The notes: a model not told the origin generated them from the sequence alone. A stretch of 44,137 nucleotides of DNA from Deltaproteobacteria bacterium (GCA_003599365.1 QZJR01000098.1:1-44137), one strand, 5' to 3'. Numbered from the stretch's first letter, positions 3,845 to 39,726 are shown. Program-made: numbers and translations.

Positions 3845-3863
3845 TTCTTTAACTCTAAAATTC

Positions 3864-5083
<1,220 letters not shown>

Positions 5084-15907: not shown

Positions 15908-15928
15908 TTTAACCTATGAAGAAAAATT

Positions 15929-16152
15929 CTAACTACTCAGGTTCAAAGTTCCAAGGTTCACGGTTCACGGTTGATGCATTCGTAAAAAGTCGAAAAAATC
16001 CCTCTCCCTAACCCTCCCCCGTCAAGGGGGAGGGGATTTCGGACTTTTTACGAGTTCATCAAGGTTAGAGAGCGATGAACACAGACCAGTATGAAGATAA
16101 GGCAACCAACTGTGAACCTTGAACCCTGAACCTGACAACCTAGCGTAGTTAC
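15929..16152. repeat. type A MITE-like element with a nested type E element (15973-16060)
   Basis: Outer ends are CTAACTACTCAGGTTCAAAGTTCCAAGGTTCACGG and CCTAGCGTAGTTAC. The inner element is bounded by gatgcattcgtaaaaagtcg and cggactttttacgagttcatc around a C-rich/G-rich hairpin (ccctctccctaaccctccccc gtcaa gggggaggggatt). The outer sequence on both sides of the insert aligns with the uninterrupted copy at 3864-3993. Confidence 0.9.
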
Positions 16153-19840: not shown

Positions 19841-20476
19841 ATGGATAAAAAATTTTTTAAGATATTAGTAGCAGATGATGATGAGATACCACGAGATATT
19901 GTCAGCAGTATTCTCTGCAAAGAGGGGTATTCTGTTGTGTCGGCAACAAATGGCATTGAGGCTATAAATATTCTCAGACTTGAGGATATAAACCTCGTTA
20001 TAACTGATCTCAGAATGCCCGGAGCTGATGGGCTTGATGTTCTTAAGCACGCTCTGATAATCAATCCTGAAGCCGCCGTTGTTATACTCACTGCTTATGG
20101 AACGCTGGATACCGCACTTGGGGCAATAAAAGGAGGAGCATATGATTACCTGACAAAACCGTTCAAGGTTCAGGAGATACTCATTCTTGCGGAAAGAGCA
20201 TATAAACGGGTGGAATTAATAAATGAAAACAGGGAATTAATCAAACATCTCAGGGATATTTATGGTGACATCGAGGTAATAAAGACAGTTTCGGGGAGTA
20301 ATAATCCCCTAATTATAACAGGTTGGATAGAGAGGATAGAAAGATTAAAGGAGATGAATATCCTTTCAGCACAGGAATCGGAAAAATTAAAGAAAAGGTT
20401 GATTAGGGGGAATGGAAATGGGAATGGAAAAGGGAAAGGGAAAGAGAAAAGGGGGGGGAAGAGTATTGATAGTTGA
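19841..20476 (+). CDS. response regulator receiver protein with helical C-terminal extension and G/N/K-rich tail
   Basis: 211 aa. ILVADDDEIPRD, NLVITDLRMPGADG, VVILTAYG, YLTKPF. The tail GNGNGNGKGKGKEKRGG is encoded by a hexamer-repeat purine tract. Confidence 0.85.
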   Translation: MDKKFFKILVADDDEIPRDIVSSILCKEGYSVVSATNGIEAINILRLEDINLVITDLRMPGADGLDVLKHALIINPEAAVVILTAYGTLDTALGAIKGGAYDYLTKPFKVQEILILAERAYKRVELINENRELIKHLRDIYGDIEVIKTVSGSNNPLIITGWIERIERLKEMNILSAQESEKLKKRLIRGNGNGNGKGKGKEKRGGKSIDS

Positions 20477-21950
20477 TGATGACCCTCTCGTGAGAGGTGT
20501 CCTCTCGGATATATTTTATAATGTTGGTGGCTATAAAACCGATGTTGCTGCAGATGGTTTTGACGGAATAGAAAAGATCAAAAATAACGAATACGATATT
20601 GTTTTTGCAGACATGGCAATGCCAAGATTGAATGGTATGGATTTTCTGAGAGAGATAAAAAAGATTAACCCCTCTATGCCTGTGGTTATAACTACAGGCA
20701 TTCCCTCTATAGACATGGCGGTAAATGCCATAAAAGAAGGTGCACAGGATTTCATAACAAAACCATTCAGGATTGATACGGTAATATCTATTGCAGACAG
20801 GATAACCGGTGAAAAAAAACTTTTAAACAAACTTGCGGTAAAAGATGATTACGAGGCATCCGTCGGGGAGCTGAAAGCAGAGCTTTTTAAGAAACTTCAG
20901 GAGATAGGCATCTTACAATCCATAAGCACTGAGCTTGATGGCCTGTGTGATAATAAAGAGATATTCGAAAGGATTGTAGCGATGGCATCAAAGCTCTTTA
21001 TGGTAAAAGAGGCATCCTTTGGCGCTATTGAAAATGGGCACCTGAAAATAAAGGGAAGCATAGGGACAATGGTAAAAGATATTTCCATTGCGAACAGTAT
21101 TTTTGAAAATGTGATAAAGAAAAAAACCTTTTGCCTTGCCTCATTGGGAGAGGTTAATCCCCACAATGGCACTCTTCTTACCTCCCCTTTTCTTTCGGTC
21201 CCCCTTACTATGAATAATGAGGTCTTTGGAATTCTGAACCTCTCAAACAAGGCAGACGGGACTGCATTCACAGACGATGAGATACGTTTTGCGCTTACCT
21301 TTGCAGAGAAAGCGGCCATGAGAATAGAGAACAACGCCCTTTATGAAGTCTTTTATACCAATCTCATGAATACATTGAAATCACTGGTCATCAGTATCGA
21401 GGCCAGAGATCCCTATACAAAGCATCATTCAGAAAGGGTTAGTTTATATTCCCTTCAGATTGCAGATGTCATAAATCTGGGTGCGGAAGATAAGGATGCT
21501 ATAAAGTTTGGCGGCTATCTCCATGACATAGGAAAGATAGGTGTCAGGGACACCGTTCTCGTGAAGCCAGGGATGCTTACACCCGAAGAAACGACAGAAA
21601 TCAGGCTGCATCCCGTTATAGGGTATAATATATTAGAACCTTTGAGGTTTTTTCCTAACGAGATGGATATTATTCGACATCATCATGAGAGATTCGATGG
21701 CAGTGGTTATCCAGATGGTCTTGCATGCGATAAGATTCCCCTTATCGCGCGAATCGCTGCCGTTGCCGATACTTATGACGCTATGACATCCTCGAGGCCG
21801 TATAGAAATGCAATGTGTCATGATGCTGCAATAAAAGAGCTAAAAAGATGTTCATCTTCTCAGCTTGAAGATGAGATTGTTCTTGCATTTTTGCAAACAC
21901 CGGCAGGGAAGGGGGGGGCAAGGTTATCACTAGAGAGGACAACACATTGA
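20412..21950 (+). CDS. REC-GAF-HD-GYP c-di-GMP phosphodiesterase-type response regulator
   Basis: 512 aa. Receiver (VLIVDDDPLVRG, DIVFADMAMPRLNG, ITKPF), a central GAF-like region, and HD-GYP motifs (HHSERV, GGYLHDIGKIGV, HHERFDGSGYPDGL). The start is uncertain (ATG at 20412, 20418 or 20424). Confidence 0.88.
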   Translation: MEMGMEKGKGKRKGGGRVLIVDDDPLVRGVLSDIFYNVGGYKTDVAADGFDGIEKIKNNEYDIVFADMAMPRLNGMDFLREIKKINPSMPVVITTGIPSIDMAVNAIKEGAQDFITKPFRIDTVISIADRITGEKKLLNKLAVKDDYEASVGELKAELFKKLQEIGILQSISTELDGLCDNKEIFERIVAMASKLFMVKEASFGAIENGHLKIKGSIGTMVKDISIANSIFENVIKKKTFCLASLGEVNPHNGTLLTSPFLSVPLTMNNEVFGILNLSNKADGTAFTDDEIRFALTFAEKAAMRIENNALYEVFYTNLMNTLKSLVISIEARDPYTKHHSERVSLYSLQIADVINLGAEDKDAIKFGGYLHDIGKIGVRDTVLVKPGMLTPEETTEIRLHPVIGYNILEPLRFFPNEMDIIRHHHERFDGSGYPDGLACDKIPLIARIAAVADTYDAMTSSRPYRNAMCHDAAIKELKRCSSSQLEDEIVLAFLQTPAGKGGARLSLERTTH

Positions 21951-22492
21951 GATTGGAACAAAATGAGCCGGAAGCACGTGGATATTTCCGGGTGGATGAT
22001 GTTTTTCCCGTGATCTCAAGGAAGGTGACGGAAGATTCTCCATATAGGAAATCGAAGGTCTTTCCAGGATATAGTATGGAAATTTCCTATATGGATGTGT
22101 CTGATGGGACAATAAATCCACAATTATGGAAGATGCTGGTTGATATTAACACAAAGCTTGGACTGATACTTGAGCACCTGCAACTGGAGAGCGAGGGACT
22201 TATAAAGGCTGAAGACATGCCGGTTAATATTAGCGCATCGGGCATAAGATTCAAAATGAAGGAAAAGGTTGATATAGGGGATGTAATTGAGATAAAAATG
22301 CTTCTGCCCACATATCCTCCCGTCGGAATCCTTACCTATGGAAATATAGTACAGGTGAAGGATCTTGGAAACGGCGAATATGAAGTCGCCTTACATTTTT
22401 CTGATATGGATGATGAGGTAAAGGACGAGATAATCCAATATGCTCTCAAGCGCCAGAGAGAGATTCTAAGGAAGCACAAACAACAACTTTGA
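21947..22492 (+). CDS. PilZ domain c-di-GMP receptor protein
   Basis: 181 aa. RGYFR (RxxxR) at residues 11-15 and NISASG (D/NxSxxG) at residues 94-99. The TTG start overlaps the HD-GYP stop (TTGA). Confidence 0.8.
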   Translation: MRLEQNEPEARGYFRVDDVFPVISRKVTEDSPYRKSKVFPGYSMEISYMDVSDGTINPQLWKMLVDINTKLGLILEHLQLESEGLIKAEDMPVNISASGIRFKMKEKVDIGDVIEIKMLLPTYPPVGILTYGNIVQVKDLGNGEYEVALHFSDMDDEVKDEIIQYALKRQREILRKHKQQL

Positions 22493-22519: not shown

Positions 22520-23287
22520 TTGATGGACCGTGCAAGCGTTATGGGAATTATTTTCGGGATAGCTGCAATTGTTGGCGGGAATCTGTTCGAGGGGGGAAGG
22601 CTTGATTCTATCATGCAGCTAACCGCTGCGGTGATTGTATTTGGTGGAACATTTGGCGCGGTACTGTTGAGTTTCCCACTACGGGATATCCTGAAAGCCA
22701 TTTCCTCTCTCAGAGATATTTTTATGGATGGAAAGACAAATCCTGAAACTTCTATAAATAGCATTATCCGGTATTCAAATATAGTGAGAAGAAAGGGTTT
22801 AATTGCCCTGGAACCGGAGATATCTAAAATCAAAGACTACTTTCTCAGAAAGGCACTGAAACTTGCAGTTGATGGTATGGGGCCAAAAATACTGAAAGAG
22901 GCAATGGAGCAGGAAAACCTTACCTATGAAGAAGAGAGAAGACGGATAGCAAGGGTTTTTGAGACTGCTGGGGGGTTTGCGCCTACCATAGGAATAATAG
23001 GAGCGGTTTTAGGACTTATACAGGTGATGGAGAATCTTTCCGATCCCTCAAGACTCGGTTCCGGCATTGCTGTAGCCTTTGTGGCGACCATATATGGCGT
23101 TGGTTCAGCGAATCTGATACTGCTGCCAATATCAAAAAAACTATTAAATAAACTTAACCATGAACTATCTGTAAGAGAGATAGTGCTGGAGGGGGTTGTG
23201 GGAATACAATCCGGAATAAATCCGTACTACCTTGAAGAGAGCCTCAGGGTTTTTATAGAGAGGGATAGAACAAGGATTTCCAGATGA
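22520..23287 (+). CDS. motA: flagellar stator protein MotA, set 1 (PomA/MotP-like length)
   Basis: 255 aa (TTG at 22520 or ATG at 22523). MotA/TolQ/ExbB channel family, with four TM segments and the C-terminal segment GIAVAFVATIYGVGSANLILLPI. Confidence 0.9.
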   Translation: MMDRASVMGIIFGIAAIVGGNLFEGGRLDSIMQLTAAVIVFGGTFGAVLLSFPLRDILKAISSLRDIFMDGKTNPETSINSIIRYSNIVRRKGLIALEPEISKIKDYFLRKALKLAVDGMGPKILKEAMEQENLTYEEERRRIARVFETAGGFAPTIGIIGAVLGLIQVMENLSDPSRLGSGIAVAFVATIYGVGSANLILLPISKKLLNKLNHELSVREIVLEGVVGIQSGINPYYLEESLRVFIERDRTRISR

Positions 23288-23976
23288 GAAAGAGACGAAA
23301 GGTGGAGGATCATGACAATGCAGATAGGTGGGTTATATCATATGCGGACTTCATTACCCTTCTTTTTGCATTTTTCACAACCCTGTATGCCATCAGTAAT
23401 GTGGATTCAGGCAAGCTCAAGATGTTTGCAGGATCGATGAAGTCTGCCTTTAAGACAACGGGGACGGATAATTCTGCCGGTACCACCATTATAGAAGGCA
23501 TCAAACCTATAAATTATGCAGATGTTAGGCTTGAAAAGGATATCAGGATAACATTTGAAAAATTTGGTAAGCTGGAGGGAATTAGTATCTCAAGAGATGA
23601 AAGAGGCGTCTCAATATCCTTTGGAGATTCTGTTCTTTTTGATACAGGTTCAGCAGTGATTAAGGATGAAGCAGAACCGTTGCTCTTATCAGTAATATCT
23701 GTTATAAAGAGGACACAAAACAATATAATAGTTGAGGGACACACAGATAATATACCTATAAAGTCTAAATACCTTTCAAACTGGGAATTATCCACAGCAA
23801 GGGCTGCCGGTGTCCTTATGTATATTCTGAAAGAAAATAATAACATGAGCCCGGAAAGATTTTCCACCTCAGGATATGCGGAATATCGTCCGGTTACATC
23901 CAATGTGACCCCTGAAGGAAGGGCAAAAAACAGGAGGGTAGATATAGTATTTGTCAGCAACAGATATGGTAGCTAA
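23284..23976 (+). CDS. motB: flagellar stator protein MotB, set 1 (OmpA-like C-terminus)
   Basis: 230 aa. RWVISYADFITLLFAFF contains the conserved channel Asp. The peptidoglycan-binding domain has GHTDN, NWELSTARA and NRRVDIV. Confidence 0.9.
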   Translation: MRKRRKVEDHDNADRWVISYADFITLLFAFFTTLYAISNVDSGKLKMFAGSMKSAFKTTGTDNSAGTTIIEGIKPINYADVRLEKDIRITFEKFGKLEGISISRDERGVSISFGDSVLFDTGSAVIKDEAEPLLLSVISVIKRTQNNIIVEGHTDNIPIKSKYLSNWELSTARAAGVLMYILKENNNMSPERFSTSGYAEYRPVTSNVTPEGRAKNRRVDIVFVSNRYGS

Positions 23977-25435
23977 AATACTCTTTATTGATGGCAGTCC
24001 TTTTGGCCATGATCTGATAAAGATGTCCTTCAGCAGGCATCCGACGGATTATCATCTGGAATTCGTATCTACAGCAAAGGAAGGGTTTGAAGTCATCAAA
24101 AGGGAACAGGTAAAGTGCATTTTTGTCAGTCAGGAACTCCCTGACATGGATGGATTTGAATTCCTAAAAGAAGTTAAGATGCTGAAGATTCAGGCGCCCG
24201 TGATTATGATGGCAATAGATGAAGCCAAAATGGTAGTTGCTGAGGCGCTGGAGAAAGGCGCAGAGGATTGTGTGACCAAGAGCCTAAAAACCTTCAGGGC
24301 ATTTCCTTCCATATCTGAGCGTTCCCTTTTCAGATATAGACATAAACTAAGCAGTGAGAGGACCAAGAGAGATAAGTTCATTATCCAACGTCAGAAACAG
24401 TGGAGGGCAATTATCGACGCCATAACAGACTTTATTTTTGTGATAGACGACGATTACAGGTTAAGGAGGGTAAATAGTGCACTCGCAAAAGTCTTAGGTA
24501 TGCATCCAAAGGAACTTGTAGGCAAGAGATGCAGCGACTTAGATAACATCATAGATGTACCTGATGAACGCTGCCTAAAAGATGTTATAAAGGATGGCAC
24601 TCCATATATTTATGAAAAAAACATAGGTAACGATACATATCAGATAAGTATATTCCCTCTGTATGACGATGATAGGCCCATGACAATTCATGTAATGAAA
24701 AATATCACCGAAATGAAGAGATTAAAGGAGCAATTATATCATTCCTATAAACTCGCATCCCTGGGTCTTCTGGTCTCAGGGGTTGCCCATGAGATTAACA
24801 ACCCGCTAACAGGAATAATCGCCTATACAGAGCTTCTCGGGATGAGTGTCGTGGATGAAGAGACCGGTAAGAAATTAAAAAAGATAATGTACAGCGCTGA
24901 GCGGTGTAAGAAGATTGTCGAAAACTTGCTTACATTCTCGAGGCAGAAAAACCCATCAAAGAGCCTTGAGTCAATGAATGATATTATTGATAGGATCGTA
25001 GATTTCAGGGGGTACTGGCTTGGAGTAAATAACATCGTGATCGAGAAGGATTATGATGTTATTTCTACTGTCCTTGTCGACTCACAGCAGATTCAGCAGG
25101 TAATCCTCAATATCCTTCTCAATGCCGAACATGCGATAGTTGACTCTAATGTAGATAATGGAAGAATTAAATTTACCACAAGGTATGATCGGGACAATCG
25201 TAAGATAATAATAAAGATTTCTGACAATGGTCCCGGAATCCCACAAAATATAATCTCGAGCATATTCGATCCATTCTTCACCACAAAGCCTGCCGGCACC
25301 GGAACAGGATTGGGCCTTTCCATATCCCACGGTATAATTGTTGAACATGAAGGCAACATAATGGTTGAAAGTTCTGAAGGAAAAGGCACTACCTTCTTTA
25401 TAGAGATTCCTTTAGCTAAGTGCTCTGGACCATAA
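23951..25435 (+). CDS. sensor histidine kinase with degenerate N-terminal receiver, PAS, HisKA and HATPase domains
   Basis: 494 aa (TTG at 23951 or ATG at 23966). PAS (WRAIIDAITDFIFVIDDDYRLRRVN), H-box HEINNPLTGI, G-boxes DNGPGI and GTGTGLGLS. Confidence 0.88.
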   Translation: MSATDMVAKILFIDGSPFGHDLIKMSFSRHPTDYHLEFVSTAKEGFEVIKREQVKCIFVSQELPDMDGFEFLKEVKMLKIQAPVIMMAIDEAKMVVAEALEKGAEDCVTKSLKTFRAFPSISERSLFRYRHKLSSERTKRDKFIIQRQKQWRAIIDAITDFIFVIDDDYRLRRVNSALAKVLGMHPKELVGKRCSDLDNIIDVPDERCLKDVIKDGTPYIYEKNIGNDTYQISIFPLYDDDRPMTIHVMKNITEMKRLKEQLYHSYKLASLGLLVSGVAHEINNPLTGIIAYTELLGMSVVDEETGKKLKKIMYSAERCKKIVENLLTFSRQKNPSKSLESMNDIIDRIVDFRGYWLGVNNIVIEKDYDVISTVLVDSQQIQQVILNILLNAEHAIVDSNVDNGRIKFTTRYDRDNRKIIIKISDNGPGIPQNIISSIFDPFFTTKPAGTGTGLGLSISHGIIVEHEGNIMVESSEGKGTTFFIEIPLAKCSGP

Positions 25436-25458: not shown

Positions 25459-25509
25459 CACCCCCACCCAAACCCTCCCCCTTGAAGGGGGAGGGTTTGG
25501 GTGGGGGTG
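25459..25509. repeat. perfect 23-bp stem / 5-nt loop hairpin (type E core)
   Basis: cacccccacccaaaccctccccc ttgaa gggggagggtttgggtgggggtg. It is related to the C-rich/G-rich cores at 16001-16037 and 32271-32350. Confidence 0.9.
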
Positions 25510-25558
25510 GATTATCCTTATGCAACCGTATTTATGAAACAGACCACTAAGAAATAGC

Positions 25559-25682
25559 GTAACCGTTAACGGTTCTCAGTTTGCAGTTTACGGTAATTAC
25601 AACAGCAGGCTTAAGCCCGCTGTTATATAAAGCTTGAAGCATTTTTGCCAACTGTTAACTGCAAACCGTGAACTGTGAACGG
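25559..25682. repeat. type C intergenic repeat, full copy
   Basis: gtaaccgttaacgg...gtaattacAACAGCAGGCTTAAGCCCGCTGTTatataaagcttgaagcatttttgccaactgttaactgcaaaccgtgaactgtgaacgg. It is near-identical to 39537-39696 and to the reverse complement of 32807-32937. Confidence 0.92.
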
Positions 25683-25725
25683 ATAACAAATAGCCTGGAG
25701 GAGTAAATGTGGAGAGGTATTCATT

Positions 25726-26577
25726 ATGTTCGTCATTATAGGCATAGTTGTAGTTTTAGGTTCTATCATCGGTGGTTTCTTGATGGAGGGAGGCAACCTC
25801 CATGTACTTTTTCAGCCTGCTGAACTGGTTATTATATTTGGTGCATCTATCGGCGCTTTCTTCATAGCCTCTCCCTCGAGGGTTGTGAAGCTTGTTGTCA
25901 AACATATTACCTTGATAATAAGTTCTAAAGAGCAGAGCAAGGAAAAATACCTGGAAATTCTCTCTCTCCTGTATCAATTATTCTCAAAGATAAGAAAGGA
26001 GGGACTCATATCAATAGAATCCGACGTTGAGGCGCCTGATAAGAGTGCAATCTTCAACAAATACAAAAGTGTCATGACAAATCTCGATATCATTAACTTT
26101 CTATGCGATAATGTGAAGGTAATTATAACAACAAATGTCCCTCCACACGAGCTCGAAGACTTAATGGAACTCGAAATAGAAACCCATCACCACGAGGCTA
26201 TGGTTCCATCCCGCAGTCTTGCTAAGATAGCAGATGCTCTGCCTGGGCTTGGTATTGTTGCTGCGGTTTTGGGTGTTGTCCTCACTATGGGTAAAATTGA
26301 CCAGCCCCCTTCAGTGCTTGGGCATTGCGTAGGCGCTGCCCTGGTGGGAACATTTCTTGGGGTGTTAATGTGCTATGGCTTCGTCGGCCCAATGGCGACA
26401 AATCTTGAATATAAGGTAAAAGAAGACAGTGTATATTTTCAGATTATAAAAGTAGCGCTGGTAGCATTTGTTGGAGGTTCACCGCCACAGATGGCGGTAG
26501 AATTTGCCAGAAGGGCGATACCGGGCAAGGAGAGACCAACCTTTGATGAACTGGAAAAGGGGATACGGGATGGATAG
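25726..26577 (+). CDS. motA: flagellar stator protein MotA, set 2 (enterobacterial MotA-like)
   Basis: 283 aa. The N-terminus MFVIIGIVVVLGSIIGGFLMEGGNLHVLFQPAELVIIFGASIGAFF closely parallels E. coli MotA. Confidence 0.92.
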   Translation: MFVIIGIVVVLGSIIGGFLMEGGNLHVLFQPAELVIIFGASIGAFFIASPSRVVKLVVKHITLIISSKEQSKEKYLEILSLLYQLFSKIRKEGLISIESDVEAPDKSAIFNKYKSVMTNLDIINFLCDNVKVIITTNVPPHELEDLMELEIETHHHEAMVPSRSLAKIADALPGLGIVAAVLGVVLTMGKIDQPPSVLGHCVGAALVGTFLGVLMCYGFVGPMATNLEYKVKEDSVYFQIIKVALVAFVGGSPPQMAVEFARRAIPGKERPTFDELEKGIRDG

Positions 26578-26586
26578 ATAAAAAAA

Positions 26587-26666
26587 GGATTCAAGGGGTC
26601 AAGGGGTCAAGGATTCGAACGACACGATCCTGCTCTGCTTTGTGCCTTTGCCACTTTGTGCCTGAC
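26587..26666. repeat. type B-related repeat with tcaagggg octamer pair
   Basis: ggattcaaggggtcaaggggtcaaggattcg ... ctgctttgtgcctttgccactttgtgcct. Confidence 0.85.
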
Positions 26667-26684
26667 CGGAAGAGATCATTTCAA

Positions 26685-27482
26685 ATGAAGGATAAAAATA
26701 TAATTATCAAGAAGGTAAAGAAACAGGCGGAAGAAGGTGACCACGGTGGGGCATGGAAGGTTGCATACGCAGACTTTGTTACTGCCCTAATGGCATTCTT
26801 TCTGCTGATGTGGCTTTTAGCCATGATAGCCCCTGAAAAAAGGATGGGTCTTGCTTCATATTTTAAGGAATTCACGGTGTTCAATGAGAGCGGTCAATCC
26901 TTCATGGGAAAAGAGAGCGAGGTCTTTAATGAGGCTGGTAAAGCTCTCAGAAAGGTTCCACGTGAATTACAGGGGACATATAATATGAAACCCGAGGAAT
27001 TTAGGGAAGTAATAAAGAAAGCTATCGAAGAAAAACTCGGTGACATTAAAGACCAGATAATAGTAGATACATTTGAGGGTGGAGTTCGTGTTCAGTTAAT
27101 GGACAAAGAAGGGAGGCCAATGTTCGACCTCGGTTCAACAAAGCCTACGTCCCTTGCGGTAAGGATATTACGGGTAATCGGAGACAACATAAAATTACTG
27201 CCGAATTCTGTCGCTGTAGAGGGTCATACCGATTCATTGGTATATGGCTCTAAAGGTTACGGCAACTGGGATCTATCTACAGAACGTGCATTGGCGGCAA
27301 AAAAGGAACTGGAAAAAAATGGGCTTGAACCTAAGCGCCTTATCAGAGTCGCAGGCTATGCAGATACAGTGCCCCTTGTAAAAGAAAACCCGAAGGACCA
27401 GAGGAATAGAAGAATAAGCATAATGCTCATGTTCCCTGATAGATCAGAGAATCCAGAATCCAGGAGTCATAAGTCAGAATGA
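26685..27482 (+). CDS. motB: flagellar stator protein MotB, set 2 (OmpA-like C-terminus)
   Basis: The start is moved from 26640, which lies inside the repeat, to the ATG at 26685 (MKDKNIII...). AWKVAYADFVTALMAFFLLMWLL carries the channel Asp. GHTDS, NWDLSTERA, NRRISIM. Confidence 0.9.
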   Translation: MKDKNIIIKKVKKQAEEGDHGGAWKVAYADFVTALMAFFLLMWLLAMIAPEKRMGLASYFKEFTVFNESGQSFMGKESEVFNEAGKALRKVPRELQGTYNMKPEEFREVIKKAIEEKLGDIKDQIIVDTFEGGVRVQLMDKEGRPMFDLGSTKPTSLAVRILRVIGDNIKLLPNSVAVEGHTDSLVYGSKGYGNWDLSTERALAAKKELEKNGLEPKRLIRVAGYADTVPLVKENPKDQRNRRISIMLMFPDRSENPESRSHKSE

Positions 27483-29023
27483 AAAGATTATTGACATTAT
27501 CAGTAGTTCTTGCCTCACTCTTATTCTTGTCTGCACGATTGACTGCTGATGATGTTTCCCCTGACAAGCAGGAAGCTCAAAAAGTTCAGAGGACTTCGGA
27601 TAATAATTCGTCAGATCGTGAAGGGGCTGATATTATTATATTAATGGATAGTTCAGGAAGCATGAAAAAGACCGATCCCCAAGATTATAGACAGCCGGCG
27701 GCAAAGCTCTTTGTATCCCTCCTTGGGGAAAGTGATCGTATAGGAATTATAAGTTTTGGGGATTCAGCTAGGGTTTTGGCATCTCTTACAGAGGTCACCA
27801 AGAAAAATCGCGAGGTACTATTTAATACTATCAACAAAATATCTTCAAAGGAATCTTCTACAAATATCTATGATGCCGTAAAAAAAGGGTTTGATGAGCT
27901 TAAATCCTGTCAGAAGAAAAGCAGGATTATCATTCTGATGTCTGATGGCAAGCTTGCATTAGGTTCAAAGAAAAAAGACGATGCGGCCTTTACGGAACTA
28001 TCCGGAATTCTACCCGAGTTGACAAAGTCCAATATCAAGCTCTATACCGTAGCCTTTACAGAAATATCCGACGTGAAACTTCTCGAGGACATGGCAAAGG
28101 AAACAGGGGGATTTTTTAGATTTGCTAAAGATGATAAGGATATCCATCTAATATTTGCATCAATCTTTGAGAAGATTAAATCTCCGAATACCATTCCTTT
28201 AGAAGGTGAGACCTTCGAGACAGACAAGGATATAAAGGAGGCGATATTGCTCATTAGTAAGACACCCGGAACATCCACCGAACTCATAGATCCATCAAGA
28301 GTGAAACATACCTCCATGAAATATGGAAAGAACATAGAATGGTATAAGTCAAACATCTTTGATATGATTACCATTAAGGAACCTGCCGTGGGAAAATGGA
28401 AGGTGAAACTAAGCTCCAGAGAAGGGAATAAGATATATGTGATAACAAACCTTAATCTTAAAACTTCCTTTGACAAGAGCTTTGTTTATAAAGGAGATAA
28501 AATAAAGATTGACGTTTGGCTCGAAAGAGATGGCAAAATATTAACAGAAAAGGATGTTCTTAGACAGGTATCCTTCTCTTCTGAAATAGCTACTCCCGGT
28601 AGAGAAAGTGTGAAATTGGATCTCCTGGACAATGGAAAATATGGAGATGATAAGCCTGATGATGGGATATCCTCCCGTGAGTTTGTGGTTAACGAAGGAG
28701 GAGAATATGCCATTAAGGTAACCGCAAAAAGTATAACATTCAAGAGAGAAAAAGTTATTCAGTTTAAGGCTGTTTCAAAACCTGCACAGTTGGCAAAACA
28801 GATAACACTTTCTAAACCCCCATTGAAGAAAAAGACCCTGTCTGAGACAGATGTTTCATGGAAATCAGTTCTCGTTAAATTTGGCATGATAAACCTGTTA
28901 TTACTATTTATAGTTACAATTATATATCTATACAAGAAATACAAAAAGGATGGGTTTTTAAAAATAGGGTGGTTAAAAAAGTTATATACTTTATGGGATA
29001 CTGGCAATGATGATAAAGATTGA
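27479..29023 (+). CDS. exported von Willebrand factor A (vWA) domain protein with C-terminal membrane anchor
   Basis: 514 aa. Signal-like N-terminus (LLTLSVVLASLLFLSA), MIDAS DSSGS (27647-27661) plus downstream T and D positions (SSTNIYDAV, ILMSDG), a beta-rich middle region, and a C-terminal TM (MINLLLLFIVTIIYLY). The start overlaps the motB2 stop (ATGA). Confidence 0.85.
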   Translation: MKRLLTLSVVLASLLFLSARLTADDVSPDKQEAQKVQRTSDNNSSDREGADIIILMDSSGSMKKTDPQDYRQPAAKLFVSLLGESDRIGIISFGDSARVLASLTEVTKKNREVLFNTINKISSKESSTNIYDAVKKGFDELKSCQKKSRIIILMSDGKLALGSKKKDDAAFTELSGILPELTKSNIKLYTVAFTEISDVKLLEDMAKETGGFFRFAKDDKDIHLIFASIFEKIKSPNTIPLEGETFETDKDIKEAILLISKTPGTSTELIDPSRVKHTSMKYGKNIEWYKSNIFDMITIKEPAVGKWKVKLSSREGNKIYVITNLNLKTSFDKSFVYKGDKIKIDVWLERDGKILTEKDVLRQVSFSSEIATPGRESVKLDLLDNGKYGDDKPDDGISSREFVVNEGGEYAIKVTAKSITFKREKVIQFKAVSKPAQLAKQITLSKPPLKKKTLSETDVSWKSVLVKFGMINLLLLFIVTIIYLYKKYKKDGFLKIGWLKKLYTLWDTGNDDKD

Positions 29024-29483
29024 TGCCCTTTATTTTCTGCTGCTTATTCAGTTTTCAGTGATACTGCTGGTATCGGCAGTATACCTTTTTTTGAAGAATA
29101 GGATGTATAGAGCGCTAAATCTGAAAACGTTAAAAGAACTTGCAGAGGCAAAGAATACTATAAAGGAATCGGAAATGTTAAAAGCAGAGGAACATAAACA
29201 GAGACTGGAAGTAGAGGAAGTGCAGGAAGTAAAAGCCACTGAAGAGTTGCAGGTTCCTCAGGGGGGGGGTGAAGCTGTTGATGAAGACAGGTATATTGAA
29301 ATATTAAGGGATAGGGATGAATTAATAACAAAGGTGAAGGAATTTGAGGATAAATTACAGGAAAAAACCAAACTGTTGGATGAAATACAGAAAAAGTATG
29401 AGGGGAAAGAAGAGGAATATGCAAATCTGGAAAAAGAATATTTGATCTTGTACAGACGGCAGCAAGATCAAGGGCTGCCTTAA
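29007..29483 (+). CDS. membrane-anchored coiled-coil protein
   Basis: 158 aa. N-terminal TM (ALYFLLLIQFSVILLVSAVYLF) followed by E/K-rich heptad-like sequence. Overlaps the vWA gene by 17 nt. Contains a G9 tract. Confidence 0.6.
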   Translation: MMIKIDALYFLLLIQFSVILLVSAVYLFLKNRMYRALNLKTLKELAEAKNTIKESEMLKAEEHKQRLEVEEVQEVKATEELQVPQGGGEAVDEDRYIEILRDRDELITKVKEFEDKLQEKTKLLDEIQKKYEGKEEEYANLEKEYLILYRRQQDQGLP

Positions 29484-31241: not shown

Positions 31242-31258
31242 ATCTTTCCTCCTTTTCC

Positions 31259-31370
31259 GACTTAGGTTCAAAGTTCCGGGGTTCACGGTTCAACGGTTTA
31301 AGATAATTATTAAGCATTTCACTCAAACCTCTGAACCCGTGAACCTTGAACCCTAAACCTGAATAGTTAC
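31259..31370. repeat. type A hairpin element (left end truncated), right end CCTGAATAGTTAC
   Basis: cttaggttcaaagttccggggttcacggttcaacgg ... cccgtgaaccttgaaccctaaacctgaatagttac. Confidence 0.88.
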
Positions 31371-31387
31371 GAATTTTCTCACGCGAT

Positions 31388-32722
31388 TTAGACAAAAATA
31401 CTTACTCCTTTCATATCCCAATAAGAAATCGGTAATTGTATTTCTTTCCTTGAGTGTGGTGCTTCTGAATCTTCTTCCCCGACATTATCCTCTGCTTCAT
31501 TTCTTTTATCTTTAAGGGACACTGAAAAACTTCCTACGTTGAGTCCTTCATTATTAAGTGTATTCAGGATATTATGGAGATTGTTGACAATCAATTCCTT
31601 CCCGATGGTATCTGATACATTTATATGTGCATTGATCATACCTTTGTCCAGGGTTAGCTCGATATGGAGCTTTCCCAGACTCTTGGTTCCGAGGAAAACA
31701 TCTATCGAGGCATCATCTTTTTTCGTTATAATGAACGCATTCCCAGGAATGTAGGTAGATTCCGGCGATTCTTTTATAGGTTGAGCAAATTTGACATTAT
31801 TCGAGTTAGCGGTGTTATCAAAATTTGGGAATATGTTCCCCGGTTTTATGTCGATCTCTGCTGTATGTGAACCGGCATCTTTCCCTTTGCCTGCTGCCGG
31901 CTGTTCAAGCGCTGTGAATTTGTCTAATTCAAATAAGACCTCGCTTACAGGTGATTTTAATGTCTGAAAATCTTTTATAATAGAAAAATTATTTGGAATA
32001 TCTATTTCACTGCCGAGTGTATACAGGGTGTTGTGGAGATTATTGACAATCGAATCTTTGCCCATGGCCTCCGGCGCTTTTATCTGTGCATTGATCATAC
32101 CTTTGTCCGGGGCTAGCTCGATATGGAGCTTTCCCAGACTCTTGGTTCCGAGGAAAACATCTATCGAGGCATTATCTTTTTTCGTTATAATGAACGCATT
32201 CTCAGGAATGTAGGTAGATTCCGGCGATTCTTTTATAGGTTGAACAAATTTGATAGACTCGTAAAAAGTCCAATCTCCCCTCCCCTTGTGGGAGGGGATG
32301 AAGGGGAGGGCACCCTCACCCCAACCCTCTCCCATCGAGGGAGAGGGATTTTTTCGACTTTTTACAACTTCATCAAATTTGACATCATTCGAATCAGCAG
32401 CGTTATCAAAATTTGGGAAAATGTTCCCCTGTTTTATGCCGATCTCTGCTGTACATGAACCGGCATCCTTCCCTTTGCCCGCTGTTGGCTGTCCTGCTGT
32501 TTCAGGCAGACTGCTGCCCTCCGCTGATATATCCTGATCTCCTGACTGGAACGTTGAAATGGATAAAATAGATGTATTGCCCTGTAATAAGTTTAATATG
32601 GCGGCCATCAGGCAATCAAAAGACTCGCTGTTGGATTGCGCCATATCCGGTTTGACACTTTGAACTGCCAATGACTTTATCCCACCGGTTATTTTAGACT
32701 CTATTGGCATTAAGATATCCAT
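31388..32722 (-). CDS. fliK: flagellar hook-length control protein FliK-like, with tandemly duplicated C-terminal domain
   Basis: 444 aa, in the fliK position (fliJ-ylxF-fliK-flgD-flgE). The C-terminal Flg_hook-like segment (LGKLHIELTLDKGMINAHINVSDTIGKELIVNNLHNILNTLNNEGLNVGSFSV) is present twice. Confidence 0.75.
   Translation of the reverse strand: MDILMPIESKITGGIKSLAVQSVKPDMAQSNSESFDCLMAAILNLLQGNTSILSISTFQSGDQDISAEGSSLPETAGQPTAGKGKDAGSCTAEIGIKQGNIFPNFDNAADSNDVKFDEVVKSRKNPSPSMGEGWGEGALPFIPSHKGRGDWTFYESIKFVQPIKESPESTYIPENAFIITKKDNASIDVFLGTKSLGKLHIELAPDKGMINAQIKAPEAMGKDSIVNNLHNTLYTLGSEIDIPNNFSIIKDFQTLKSPVSEVLFELDKFTALEQPAAGKGKDAGSHTAEIDIKPGNIFPNFDNTANSNNVKFAQPIKESPESTYIPGNAFIITKKDDASIDVFLGTKSLGKLHIELTLDKGMINAHINVSDTIGKELIVNNLHNILNTLNNEGLNVGSFSVSLKDKRNEAEDNVGEEDSEAPHSRKEIQLPISYWDMKGVSIFV
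32254..32374. repeat. type E MITE-like element inserted in frame in fliK
   Basis: Ends gatagactcgtaaaaagtcc and cgactttttacaacttcatc form an inverted repeat. The core is C-rich/G-rich hairpins. AAATTTGA flanks it on both sides (32246-32253 and 32375-32382). Confidence 0.88.
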
Positions 32723-32752: not shown

Positions 32753-32806
32753 GGTAATCTACTAATAACCAAATTCCCAGCAACGATAATCAAGCAGTCT
32801 TCGTAT

Positions 32807-32937
32807 CCGTTCACAGTTCACGGTTTGCAGTTAACAGTTGGCAAAAATGCTTCAAGCTTATATAACAGCAAGCTTAAGCTTGCTGTTATAATGCCTGCTG
32901 TTGTAATTGCCGTAAACTGAGAACCGTTAACGGTTAC
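32807..32937. repeat. type C intergenic repeat, reverse orientation, with a perfect 24-bp palindrome (32864-32887)
   Basis: ccgttcacagttcacggtttgcagttaacagttggcaaaaatgcttcaagcttatatAACAGCAAGCTTAAGCTTGCTGTTata...gtaattgccgtaaactgagaaccgttaacggttac. Confidence 0.92.
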
Positions 32938-33037
32938 CGGTCTTCTTAATGAGCTATTATCGGGGGGACAAAGTTCCGAAAGGTTCTTGCATGTTTACAA
33001 GATGGGACGTTAAAAAGTATTTTGCAGTGAAAATATT

Positions 33038-39536: not shown

Positions 39537-39696
39537 GTAACCGTTCACGGTTCTCAGCCTGCCCTGGCGCGAGCGCTGCGGTCTGGGCCAGGGTTTACAG
39601 TTCACGGTAATTACAACAGCAGGCTTAAGCCCGCTGTTATATAAAGCTTGAAGCATTTTTGCCAACTGTTAACTGCAAACCGTAAACTGTGAACGG
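39537..39696. repeat. type C intergenic repeat with a 36-nt GC-rich insertion (39558-39593) and a 24-bp palindrome (39615-39638)
   Basis: Aligns with 25559-25682 except for the inserted cctgccctggcgcgagcgctgcggtctgggccaggg. Confidence 0.92.
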
Positions 39697-39726
39697 ATAC
39701 GTTATTTGTTATCACCCTGCATTTTT

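Follow-up and report, generated by a model that had tools for sequence, protein, structure and literature searches.

The question raised by this locus is whether two reading frames that overlap at a run of eight guanines (G8) are two genes, a single gene broken by one base, or a pair that is fused and separated by slippage. The window, by which we mean the whole 44,137-nt stretch of DNA that was analysed (Deltaproteobacteria bacterium, GCA_003599365.1, QZJR01000098.1:1-44137), had been read in a preliminary description that left three explanations standing: a homopolymer sequencing or assembly error, genuinely overlapping genes, and a slipped-strand on/off or fusion switch. It did not choose among them, though its title inclined towards a fusion or switch. 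We believe that this is an ordinary overlapping, probably translationally coupled gene pair with a length-variable low-complexity junction, and we give this reading a probability of roughly 85%. The features at the junction are as follows.

19841-20476, plus strand: ORF1, a stand-alone receiver (REC) of 211 aa (ORF list; Pfam Response_reg, residues 8-114; RJP55232.1)
20474-20476, plus strand: ORF1 stop codon TGA; within LIVDDD of ORF2, its T is the third base of the Val codon and its GA opens the first Asp codon
20412-21950, plus strand: ORF2, a REC-GAF-HD-GYP response regulator of 512 aa (Pfam; HHERFDGSGYP; RJP55233.1)
20406-20410, plus strand: GGGGG, a Shine-Dalgarno-like purine block just 5' of the ORF2 ATGs (from the sequence)
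20408-20449, plus strand: imperfect purine hexamer/dodecamer repeat, GGGAAA / GGGAATGGAAAA (Tandem Repeats Finder)
20451-20458, plus strand: G8 homopolymer inside the ORF1/ORF2 overlap, with AAAA before it and AAGAG after it

Both the G8 and the purine hexamer repeat lie exactly where the preliminary description had put them, as judged from the sequence and from Tandem Repeats Finder, and its 65-nt overlap and ORF1 ending (...KEKRGGKSIDS*) reappear in our ORF list. The 65 nt are counted from the first ATG of ORF2 (20412), and across the choices of start the overlap is 53-65 nt. Tandem Repeats Finder reports the repeat at period 6 (7.0 copies, 83% matches, consensus GGGAAA) and at period 12 (3.4 copies, 86% matches). 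It translates as GNGNGNGKGKGKEK in the ORF1 frame and as MEMGMEKGKGKRK in the ORF2 frame. The G8 is within the coding sequence of both ORFs and codes for RGG in the first and GGG in the second. The GenBank record of this 44,137-nt contig already annotates two overlapping genes here, RJP55232.1 (211 aa) and RJP55233.1 (512 aa).

ORF1 has a C-terminal extension of ~90 aa that ends in ...GNGNGNGKGKGKEKRGGKSIDS*, and its final ~22 codons are inside ORF2. The extension has no match in PDB or NCBIfam, and ORF1 matches only generic receiver-domain entries. In a full HMMER scan of 1.84 billion representatives, the proteins that match ORF1 over residues 1 to ~195 are 184-218 aa long, and longer matches hit the receiver domain only.

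ORF2 is a putative RpfG-type c-di-GMP phosphodiesterase. Its Pfam matches are Response_reg (6e-28), GAF, HD (3e-19) and HD_5 (3e-31), and it carries the features by which an RpfG-type HD-GYP protein is recognised in sequence, an HHExxDGxGYP signature after a receiver domain with a phospho-acceptor Asp. In the product that starts at ATG 20424 the signature (HHERFDGSGYP) is at residue 420, and the DDD and FADMAMP motifs are also present. NCBIfam matches in the comparison with the RpfG type were sub-threshold only (NosR-family, 188 bits against a cutoff of 400). ORF1 and ORF2 each have full-length stand-alone homologues, as is expected of a separately translated pair.

There are three in-frame ATGs at the beginning of ORF2, at 20412, 20418 and 20424, and its N-terminus reads MEMGMEKGKGKRKGGGRVLIVDDD. 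We take ATG 20412 to be the positional orthologue of the start in relatives because it has the conserved context AAAGG(C/T)TGrTyAGGGGnATG; the other two are in-frame alternatives. The context at 20394-20414, AAAGGTTGATTAGGGGGA-ATG, agrees with that of relatives, such as L051 (aaaggttgattaggggtaATG) and L036 (aaaggttgatcaggggggATG), and in 51 of 60 relatives a purine-rich motif can be seen in the sequence no more than 18 nt upstream of the ORF2 start. The ORF2 homologues (the best 120 of the 297 matches described below) begin with MEKG[KR]ILIVDDD and are typically ~494 aa. Since their N-termini align at this motif, the repeat has inserted 8-12 aa into ORF2 of the window. We also considered TTG 20466 as the start of ORF2, with the G8 as its Shine-Dalgarno sequence, which is possible and unnecessary, as ATG 20412 matches the start position of the relatives.

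The preliminary description had claimed that loss of one G would fuse the two frames, and as an in silico edit this holds. Shortening the tract to G7 gives a REC-linker-REC-GAF-HD-GYP protein of 702 aa, and G7 or G10 (702/703 aa) reads ...KEKRGGRVLIVDDD. With G7, ORF2 from ATG 20424 ends after 14 aa; with G9, ORF1 has 209 aa and ORF2 from the same ATG ends after 17 aa. The hypothetical fused protein would be ~78-kDa, its junction peptide would span ...EKRGGRVLIVDDDPLVR, and at the junction RGGRVLIVDDDPLVR would be joined to ORF1 sequence.

We searched 5.8 billion proteins with the 702-aa hypothetical protein and obtained 297 matches at E ≤ 1e-20. The best 120 of the 297 are 437-510 aa long with 57-99% identity, and they align with the ORF2 part alone, 62-73% of the query. 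No fused orthologue was among these best 120 of 297 matches from the 5.8 billion proteins, and because a fused orthologue would outscore proteins with only ORF2, its absence there counts against a fusion. One locus with a 723-aa ORF (L023) looked like a fused orthologue and was rejected. Its 'linker' consists of Ns between duplicated flanks, and with the gap closed it reads MEKGKLLIIDDD, with ORF1 ending in ...QAINN*.

If the true gene were a single REC-REC-GAF-HD-GYP ORF, the G8 would reflect an error in homopolymer sequencing or in assembly, or else a recent frameshift on the way to a pseudogene. The sole point in favor of this is that altering a single base brings back a long ORF whose Gly/Lys-rich linker is plausible. 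However, the exact ORF1 protein is encoded on four more contigs (L001, L002, L003 and L004, from JGI samples 3300037880, 3300007354 and 3300038436 and from NCBI GCA_020062895.1, at least three samples in all), and the junction in each of them is base-for-base the same as in the window, G8 included. L002 (sample 3300007354) has 8 differing positions and one gap relative to the window over 6,720 nt, so we are looking at an independent population and not at copies of one assembly. The G8 is real, and its recurrence in independent assemblies refutes a sequencing or assembly error. In addition, relatives without the homopolymer keep both frames, relatives with a substitution-interrupted or shifted tract keep the total length and both frames, and the orthologues are the size of separate genes (~494 aa from the MEKG... 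position for ORF2, ~200 aa for ORF1). We consider a mistaken or broken single gene to be practically untenable.

Three further lineages have the junction: L147 (ENA ERZ27247824), L049 (WOUX01000057) and L005 (JACQWO010000048). In blastn segments, L049 is 95-98% and L005 92-95% identical to the window at the nucleotide level. Between fixed anchors, the junctions are:

Window: 90 nt, tract A4G8A2
L147: 96 nt (+6 nt), tract A5G8A1
L049: 102 nt (+12 nt), tract A4G9A1
L005: 72 nt (-18 nt), without a homopolymer, GGAGAGGGGGAGGG

All of the length differences are in the hexamer repeat, and the indels (6, 12 and 18 nt) are all multiples of six. The tract itself originated by substitution: the 14-nt A/G block has a constant length in the window, L147 and L049, and single substitutions are the sole differences. 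In all four lineages, whether or not there is a homopolymer, ORF2 reads ...GRVLIVDDD and the same TGA closes ORF1, which has ...(K/E)SI(D/N)S* or ...GINS* as its end. Two substitutions 3' of the tract (GGA/GGG and TTG/TTA) are synonymous for ORF2 and non-synonymous in the tail of ORF1 (K/E and D/N). No tract-length variant that breaks the frame was found in the seven consensus assemblies from four lineages, in which minority variants would not show. Searching metagenome contigs for length variants with an exact-flank DNA pattern and a variable gap gave 0 matches, the collection evidently being without samples that carry the strain, and a protein-based scan of metagenome contigs gave one close relative, L090, which spans only the second tract described below.

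L049 has a peculiarity of its own. Relative to the window it is missing ~43 nt of ORF1 and ~68 nt of ORF2 (at ~4230-4240 and ~4955-4961, corresponding to window 20059-20102 and 20820-20889), and both frames are broken. Only a 355-aa remnant is annotated in GenBank (KAF0122585.1). Either both receivers have become pseudogenes in that lineage or the contig is mis-assembled.

The overlap extends well beyond these close lineages. A scan of genome contigs yielded 80 loci, mostly MAGs labelled Nitrospirota or Thermodesulfovibrionales, and in ~65 of the 80 the ORF1 orthologue is immediately 5' of the HD-GYP gene, usually with the PilZ gene next. The two ORFs overlap in every analysable junction (60/60), by 4, 8, 11, 14, 23, 26, 29, 32 or 35 nt in 52 of the 60. 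In 59 of 60 the two frames stand in the +1 relation that they have in the window, with overlap lengths congruent to 2 mod 3; the sole exception is L062, with a 4-nt overlap. In relatives the ORF1 stop is typically a TGA from the xxT GAT of ORF2 (I/V)DDD, or a TAA 8 nt past the ATG. We believe the overlap has been stable across Nitrospirota-type genomes because LIVDDD, when written as xxT GAT GAT, supplies the stop of the upstream gene. At the ~60 related junctions no G/C run exceeds 6, and the longest is usually 2-4.

Conservation of both the overlap and the frame relation, with indels in multiples of 3, is the pattern of a separately translated pair. Genuinely overlapping genes, one of the three original options, are thus supported by the conserved overlap, the separate homologues and the kept frames. 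The preliminary description had also proposed comparing the architecture of orthologues, and had said that its idea would be refuted by reads uniformly supporting G8 together with relatives that always have two separate genes and no homopolymer at the junction. For the relatives, the sequences look essentially like this: two separate genes, no fused form and, at the ~60 more distant junctions, no G/C run longer than 6.

For the overlapping pair we propose the following history. ORF1 (a REC with a helical tail) and ORF2 are separate genes at the head of an operon-like string of REC, REC-GAF-HD-GYP, PilZ, MotA, MotB and hybrid kinase, and their overlap predates the divergence of the lineages. 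ORF2 would initiate at an ATG behind the Shine-Dalgarno-like purine block within the 3' end of ORF1, and its translation is probably coupled to that of ORF1. The ORF1 frame, one base upstream of that of ORF2, runs on to the TGA made by the Val-Asp codons of LIVDDD. In this lineage the junction would have been lengthened by slippage or duplication of the purine hexamer/dodecamer, and there would be three in-frame ATGs because the duplicated unit contains the ATG-GAA start region. The G8 arose as a by-product when Lys/Gly/Arg codons (AAA GGG GGG GGA) underwent point substitutions. With both frames under selection, the surviving indels would be only multiples of three, here six, so the repeat would merely alter the length of the ORF1 C-terminal tail and the ORF2 N-terminal leader.

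There are two counterpoints. In some bacteria, tracts of G8-G9 are able to slip at measurable rates. There is also a curious coincidence: two G8 tracts flank ORF2, each one frameshift away from a fusion.

21911-21918, plus strand: second G8, 30 nt before the ORF2 stop, AAG GGG GGG GCA = KGGA

Adding one G to the second tract gives, in silico, an ORF2-PilZ fusion of 693 aa. A slipped-strand contingency switch would therefore have something to work with. At the first tract it would produce separate genes with G8, a fused protein without stand-alone phosphodiesterase with G7, and phosphodiesterase OFF with G9, which would add population heterogeneity to c-di-GMP motility control, and the second G8 could gate an HD-GYP-PilZ fusion. 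It is consistent with this that the first G8 is in coding sequence, that the ±1 outcomes can be interpreted in silico and that the second G8 has a similar geometry.

The tracts do not behave as a switch would lead one to expect. The second tract is G8 in the window and L147, G7 in L090, GGAGGGG in L049 and L148, and GGGGAGGAG in L005, the block length is identical, and no frame-breaking length variant of it was found among these six. Going from L049 to the window, AAA GGA GGG becomes AAG GGG GGG by two changes that are synonymous in ORF2, and the ORF2 C-terminus PAGKGGARLSLERTTH* is common to the lineages with an interrupted second tract. By this comparison the second G8 is one that arose by synonymous substitutions, and at both ends of ORF2 it is conserved Lys/Gly codons (AAR GGN GGN) that underlie the junction tracts. 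Across the seven assemblies and four lineages, then, neither tract has a frame-breaking length variant and all tract differences are length-constant substitutions, and the first tract is missing from ~60 orthologous junctions.

We also counted G/C runs. Runs of 7 or more number 4 in the window, and runs of 8 or more number 3; Markov models of order 1-4 predict 2.5-4.5 and 0.6-1.3, respectively, and related loci (689 kb) have 3.3 and 0.64 in every 44 kb. Runs of at least 7 are not in excess in the 44-kb window, and for runs of at least 8 the excess over expectation is at most mild; the former speaks against a switch, and the latter slightly for it. A poly-G excess as the signature of contingency loci was unsupported in the 44 kb examined once the Markov and related-locus controls were applied. 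The four runs of at least 7 all consist of G and belong to plus-strand genes, whose coding strand carries them; no C run is longer than 6. The two runs away from the junctions are a G9 at 29261-29269, in frame (QGGGE) in a 158-aa coiled-coil-like ORF (29007-29483) with no Pfam match, and a G7 at 4315-4321, in frame (KGGK) within a CheB gene (4052-5083). An exact-protein look-up found no other assemblies of the G9 ORF (29007-29483).

Campylobacter had been offered as the precedent, on the grounds that homopolymer phase variation of flagellar regulators is established there. The analogy is loose. Poly-G switching exists in C. jejuni, where G8 tracts change at 1e-4 to 1.6e-3 per division, and such rates would favor a switch; in flgR/flgS, however, the tracts consist of A/T and have fewer than 7 units (PMC8355987). 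Moreover, the high poly-G switching of C. jejuni is tied to its lack of mismatch repair (PMC8355987), and the Campylobacter rates depend on that absence. There is also no fused orthologue to suggest that the fusion works. With no frame-breaking variants, an unconserved tract and no fused orthologue, the slipped-strand option has no positive support, and we judge a contingency switch at the G8 unlikely. It is quite improbable, too, that the two tracts bracketing the HD-GYP gene are low-frequency DNA or RNA slippage sites that give fused or truncated forms of the REC, REC-GAF-HD-GYP and PilZ proteins. If it were true, it would mean stochastic rewiring of c-di-GMP stator control in an environmental, non-pathogenic bacterium, and phase variation of motility regulators by simple sequence repeats (SSR) would reach free-living environmental bacteria.

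The remaining alternative acts on the RNA. Transcriptional slippage on long homopolymers happens in bacteria, although it is best documented for A/T runs. Polymerase stuttering on A4G8 or a +1 ribosomal frameshift could yield a minor fused product, or an RNA G-quadruplex could tune ORF2 initiation. There is a homopolymer within the overlap, and ViennaRNA predicts a three-tetrad G-quadruplex on GGG/GGG/G8 at 20406-20458 (GGG-aaa-GGG-aaagagaaaa-GGG-g-GGG), with -18.8 kcal/mol against -11.9 kcal/mol without it. However, this quadruplex requires a 10-nt loop, and as it is not conserved in L005 we take it to be incidental. The slippery, G-rich element is missing in L005 and ~60 other orthologous junctions, which argues against a programmed function, and we identified no stimulatory element for recoding at the junction. 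Programmed recoding should leave a conserved shift motif and a conserved trans-frame product; among the orthologues the motif is not conserved, and no fused homologue was found. We regard RNA-level recoding or tuning as very unlikely.

The overlapping pair is embedded in flagellar genes. The minus strand upstream carries fliL, fliM, fliN, fliOPQR and flhB, and downstream of ORF2 the gene string continues as follows.

21953-22492, plus strand: PilZ-domain protein with RxxxR at its N-terminus (Pfam PilZ; a 179-aa JGI product in L001)
22520-23287, plus strand: motA (Pfam MotA_N/MotA_ExbB)
23284-23976, plus strand: motB (Pfam MotB_plug/OmpA)
23951-25435, plus strand: hybrid REC-PAS-HisKA-HATPase histidine kinase, the last of the gene string (Pfam)

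PilZ receptors with RpfG-type REC-HD-GYP phosphodiesterases act on the flagellar motor (YcgR/MotA-type control). From the domain content of this module we infer c-di-GMP control of the flagellar motor: it would be a c-di-GMP circuit on the stator in which phosphorylation controls an HD-GYP phosphodiesterase, with a single-domain receiver as auxiliary and a PilZ protein as receptor. The receivers may have the hybrid kinase as their phosphodonor.

In the window and in L147 the PilZ gene lacks an ATG start. It probably begins with TTG 21953 (or 21947), which overlaps or directly adjoins the TGA that ends ORF2 (21948-21950, TTGA). L049 (5958-6072) and L148 (1107-1221) have 15 extra nt here; they come from a tandem duplication (TTGGAACAGAAAGAG/ATGGAACAGAAAGAG) and provide an ATG (MEQKELEARGYF).

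Several other elements of the window were noted in passing. Beyond the kinase gene there is a second motA-motB pair (25726-27479), and after it comes a VWA-domain protein of 514 aa that is secreted or in the membrane (27479-29023). Perfect G/C-rich inverted repeats form long hairpins at 25461-25507 (CCCCCACCCAAACCCTCCCCC ... GGGGGAGGGTTTGGGTGGGGG), just past the kinase gene, and at 32290-32333 (a similar pair, 32290/32313), in another intergenic region. Both could be terminators, and they matched G-quadruplex patterns too. Dispersed intergenic repeats of ~50-110 nt, with 76-100% identity between copies and in both orientations, are found at 1549-1610, 3857-3907, 15922-15972, 25538-25685, 31247-31377, 32802-32958 and 39593-39701. 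They consist of periodic GGTTCA/CAGTTxAC-like units flanking a palindromic core (ACAGCAGGCTTAAGCCTGCTGT), are also in L049 and L005, and look like a REP/MITE-like family. Finally, a minus-strand ORF of 444 aa (31388-32722) has internal direct repeats within 31557-32492, one of 238 nt (90% identical, 459 nt apart) and one of 133 nt (86%, 588 nt apart), a pattern that suggests a recently duplicated domain.

The importance of this gene pair goes little beyond annotation hygiene. It does illustrate that Lys/Gly codons can leave a fixed and harmless homopolymer at a gene junction even where a change of one base would give a long fused ORF, and that comparative data alone can tell such a by-product from a sequencing error or a contingency switch. 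It is also instructive that a receiver's LIVDDD, written as xxT GAT GAT, automatically stops an upstream gene that is read one base ahead.

Four kinds of known systems bear comparison with this locus. Like RpfG-type systems, ORF2 has a REC, an HD and HHExxDGxGYP, and a PilZ gene and motAB directly follow; unlike them, it has a GAF between REC and HD-GYP, and there is a dedicated second stand-alone REC gene upstream. The C. jejuni poly-G contingency loci share a G8 in the coding sequence of a motility-associated response-regulator locus, where ±1 nt alters the products. In contrast to those loci, no length polymorphism between strains or lineages was observed here, the tract was made and shifted by substitution and is not conserved, the 44-kb window gives no clear sign of a genome-wide excess, and the host is an uncultured environmental bacterium.

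Programmed slippage and frameshifting systems such as dnaX, IS element transposases and prfB likewise have two overlapping frames that become one when reading slips by 1 nt at a homopolymer, whereas the shift site in our locus is unconserved and has no evident stimulator, and its orthologues point to separate proteins. With overlapping, translationally coupled operon genes it shares two conserved ORFs in different frames and a downstream start and ribosome-binding-like block inside the upstream gene. The difference from such pairs in the relatives is one of length, since the overlap is 53-65 nt here and mostly 4-35 nt there, and we believe that it is longer because the purine hexamer repeat expanded.
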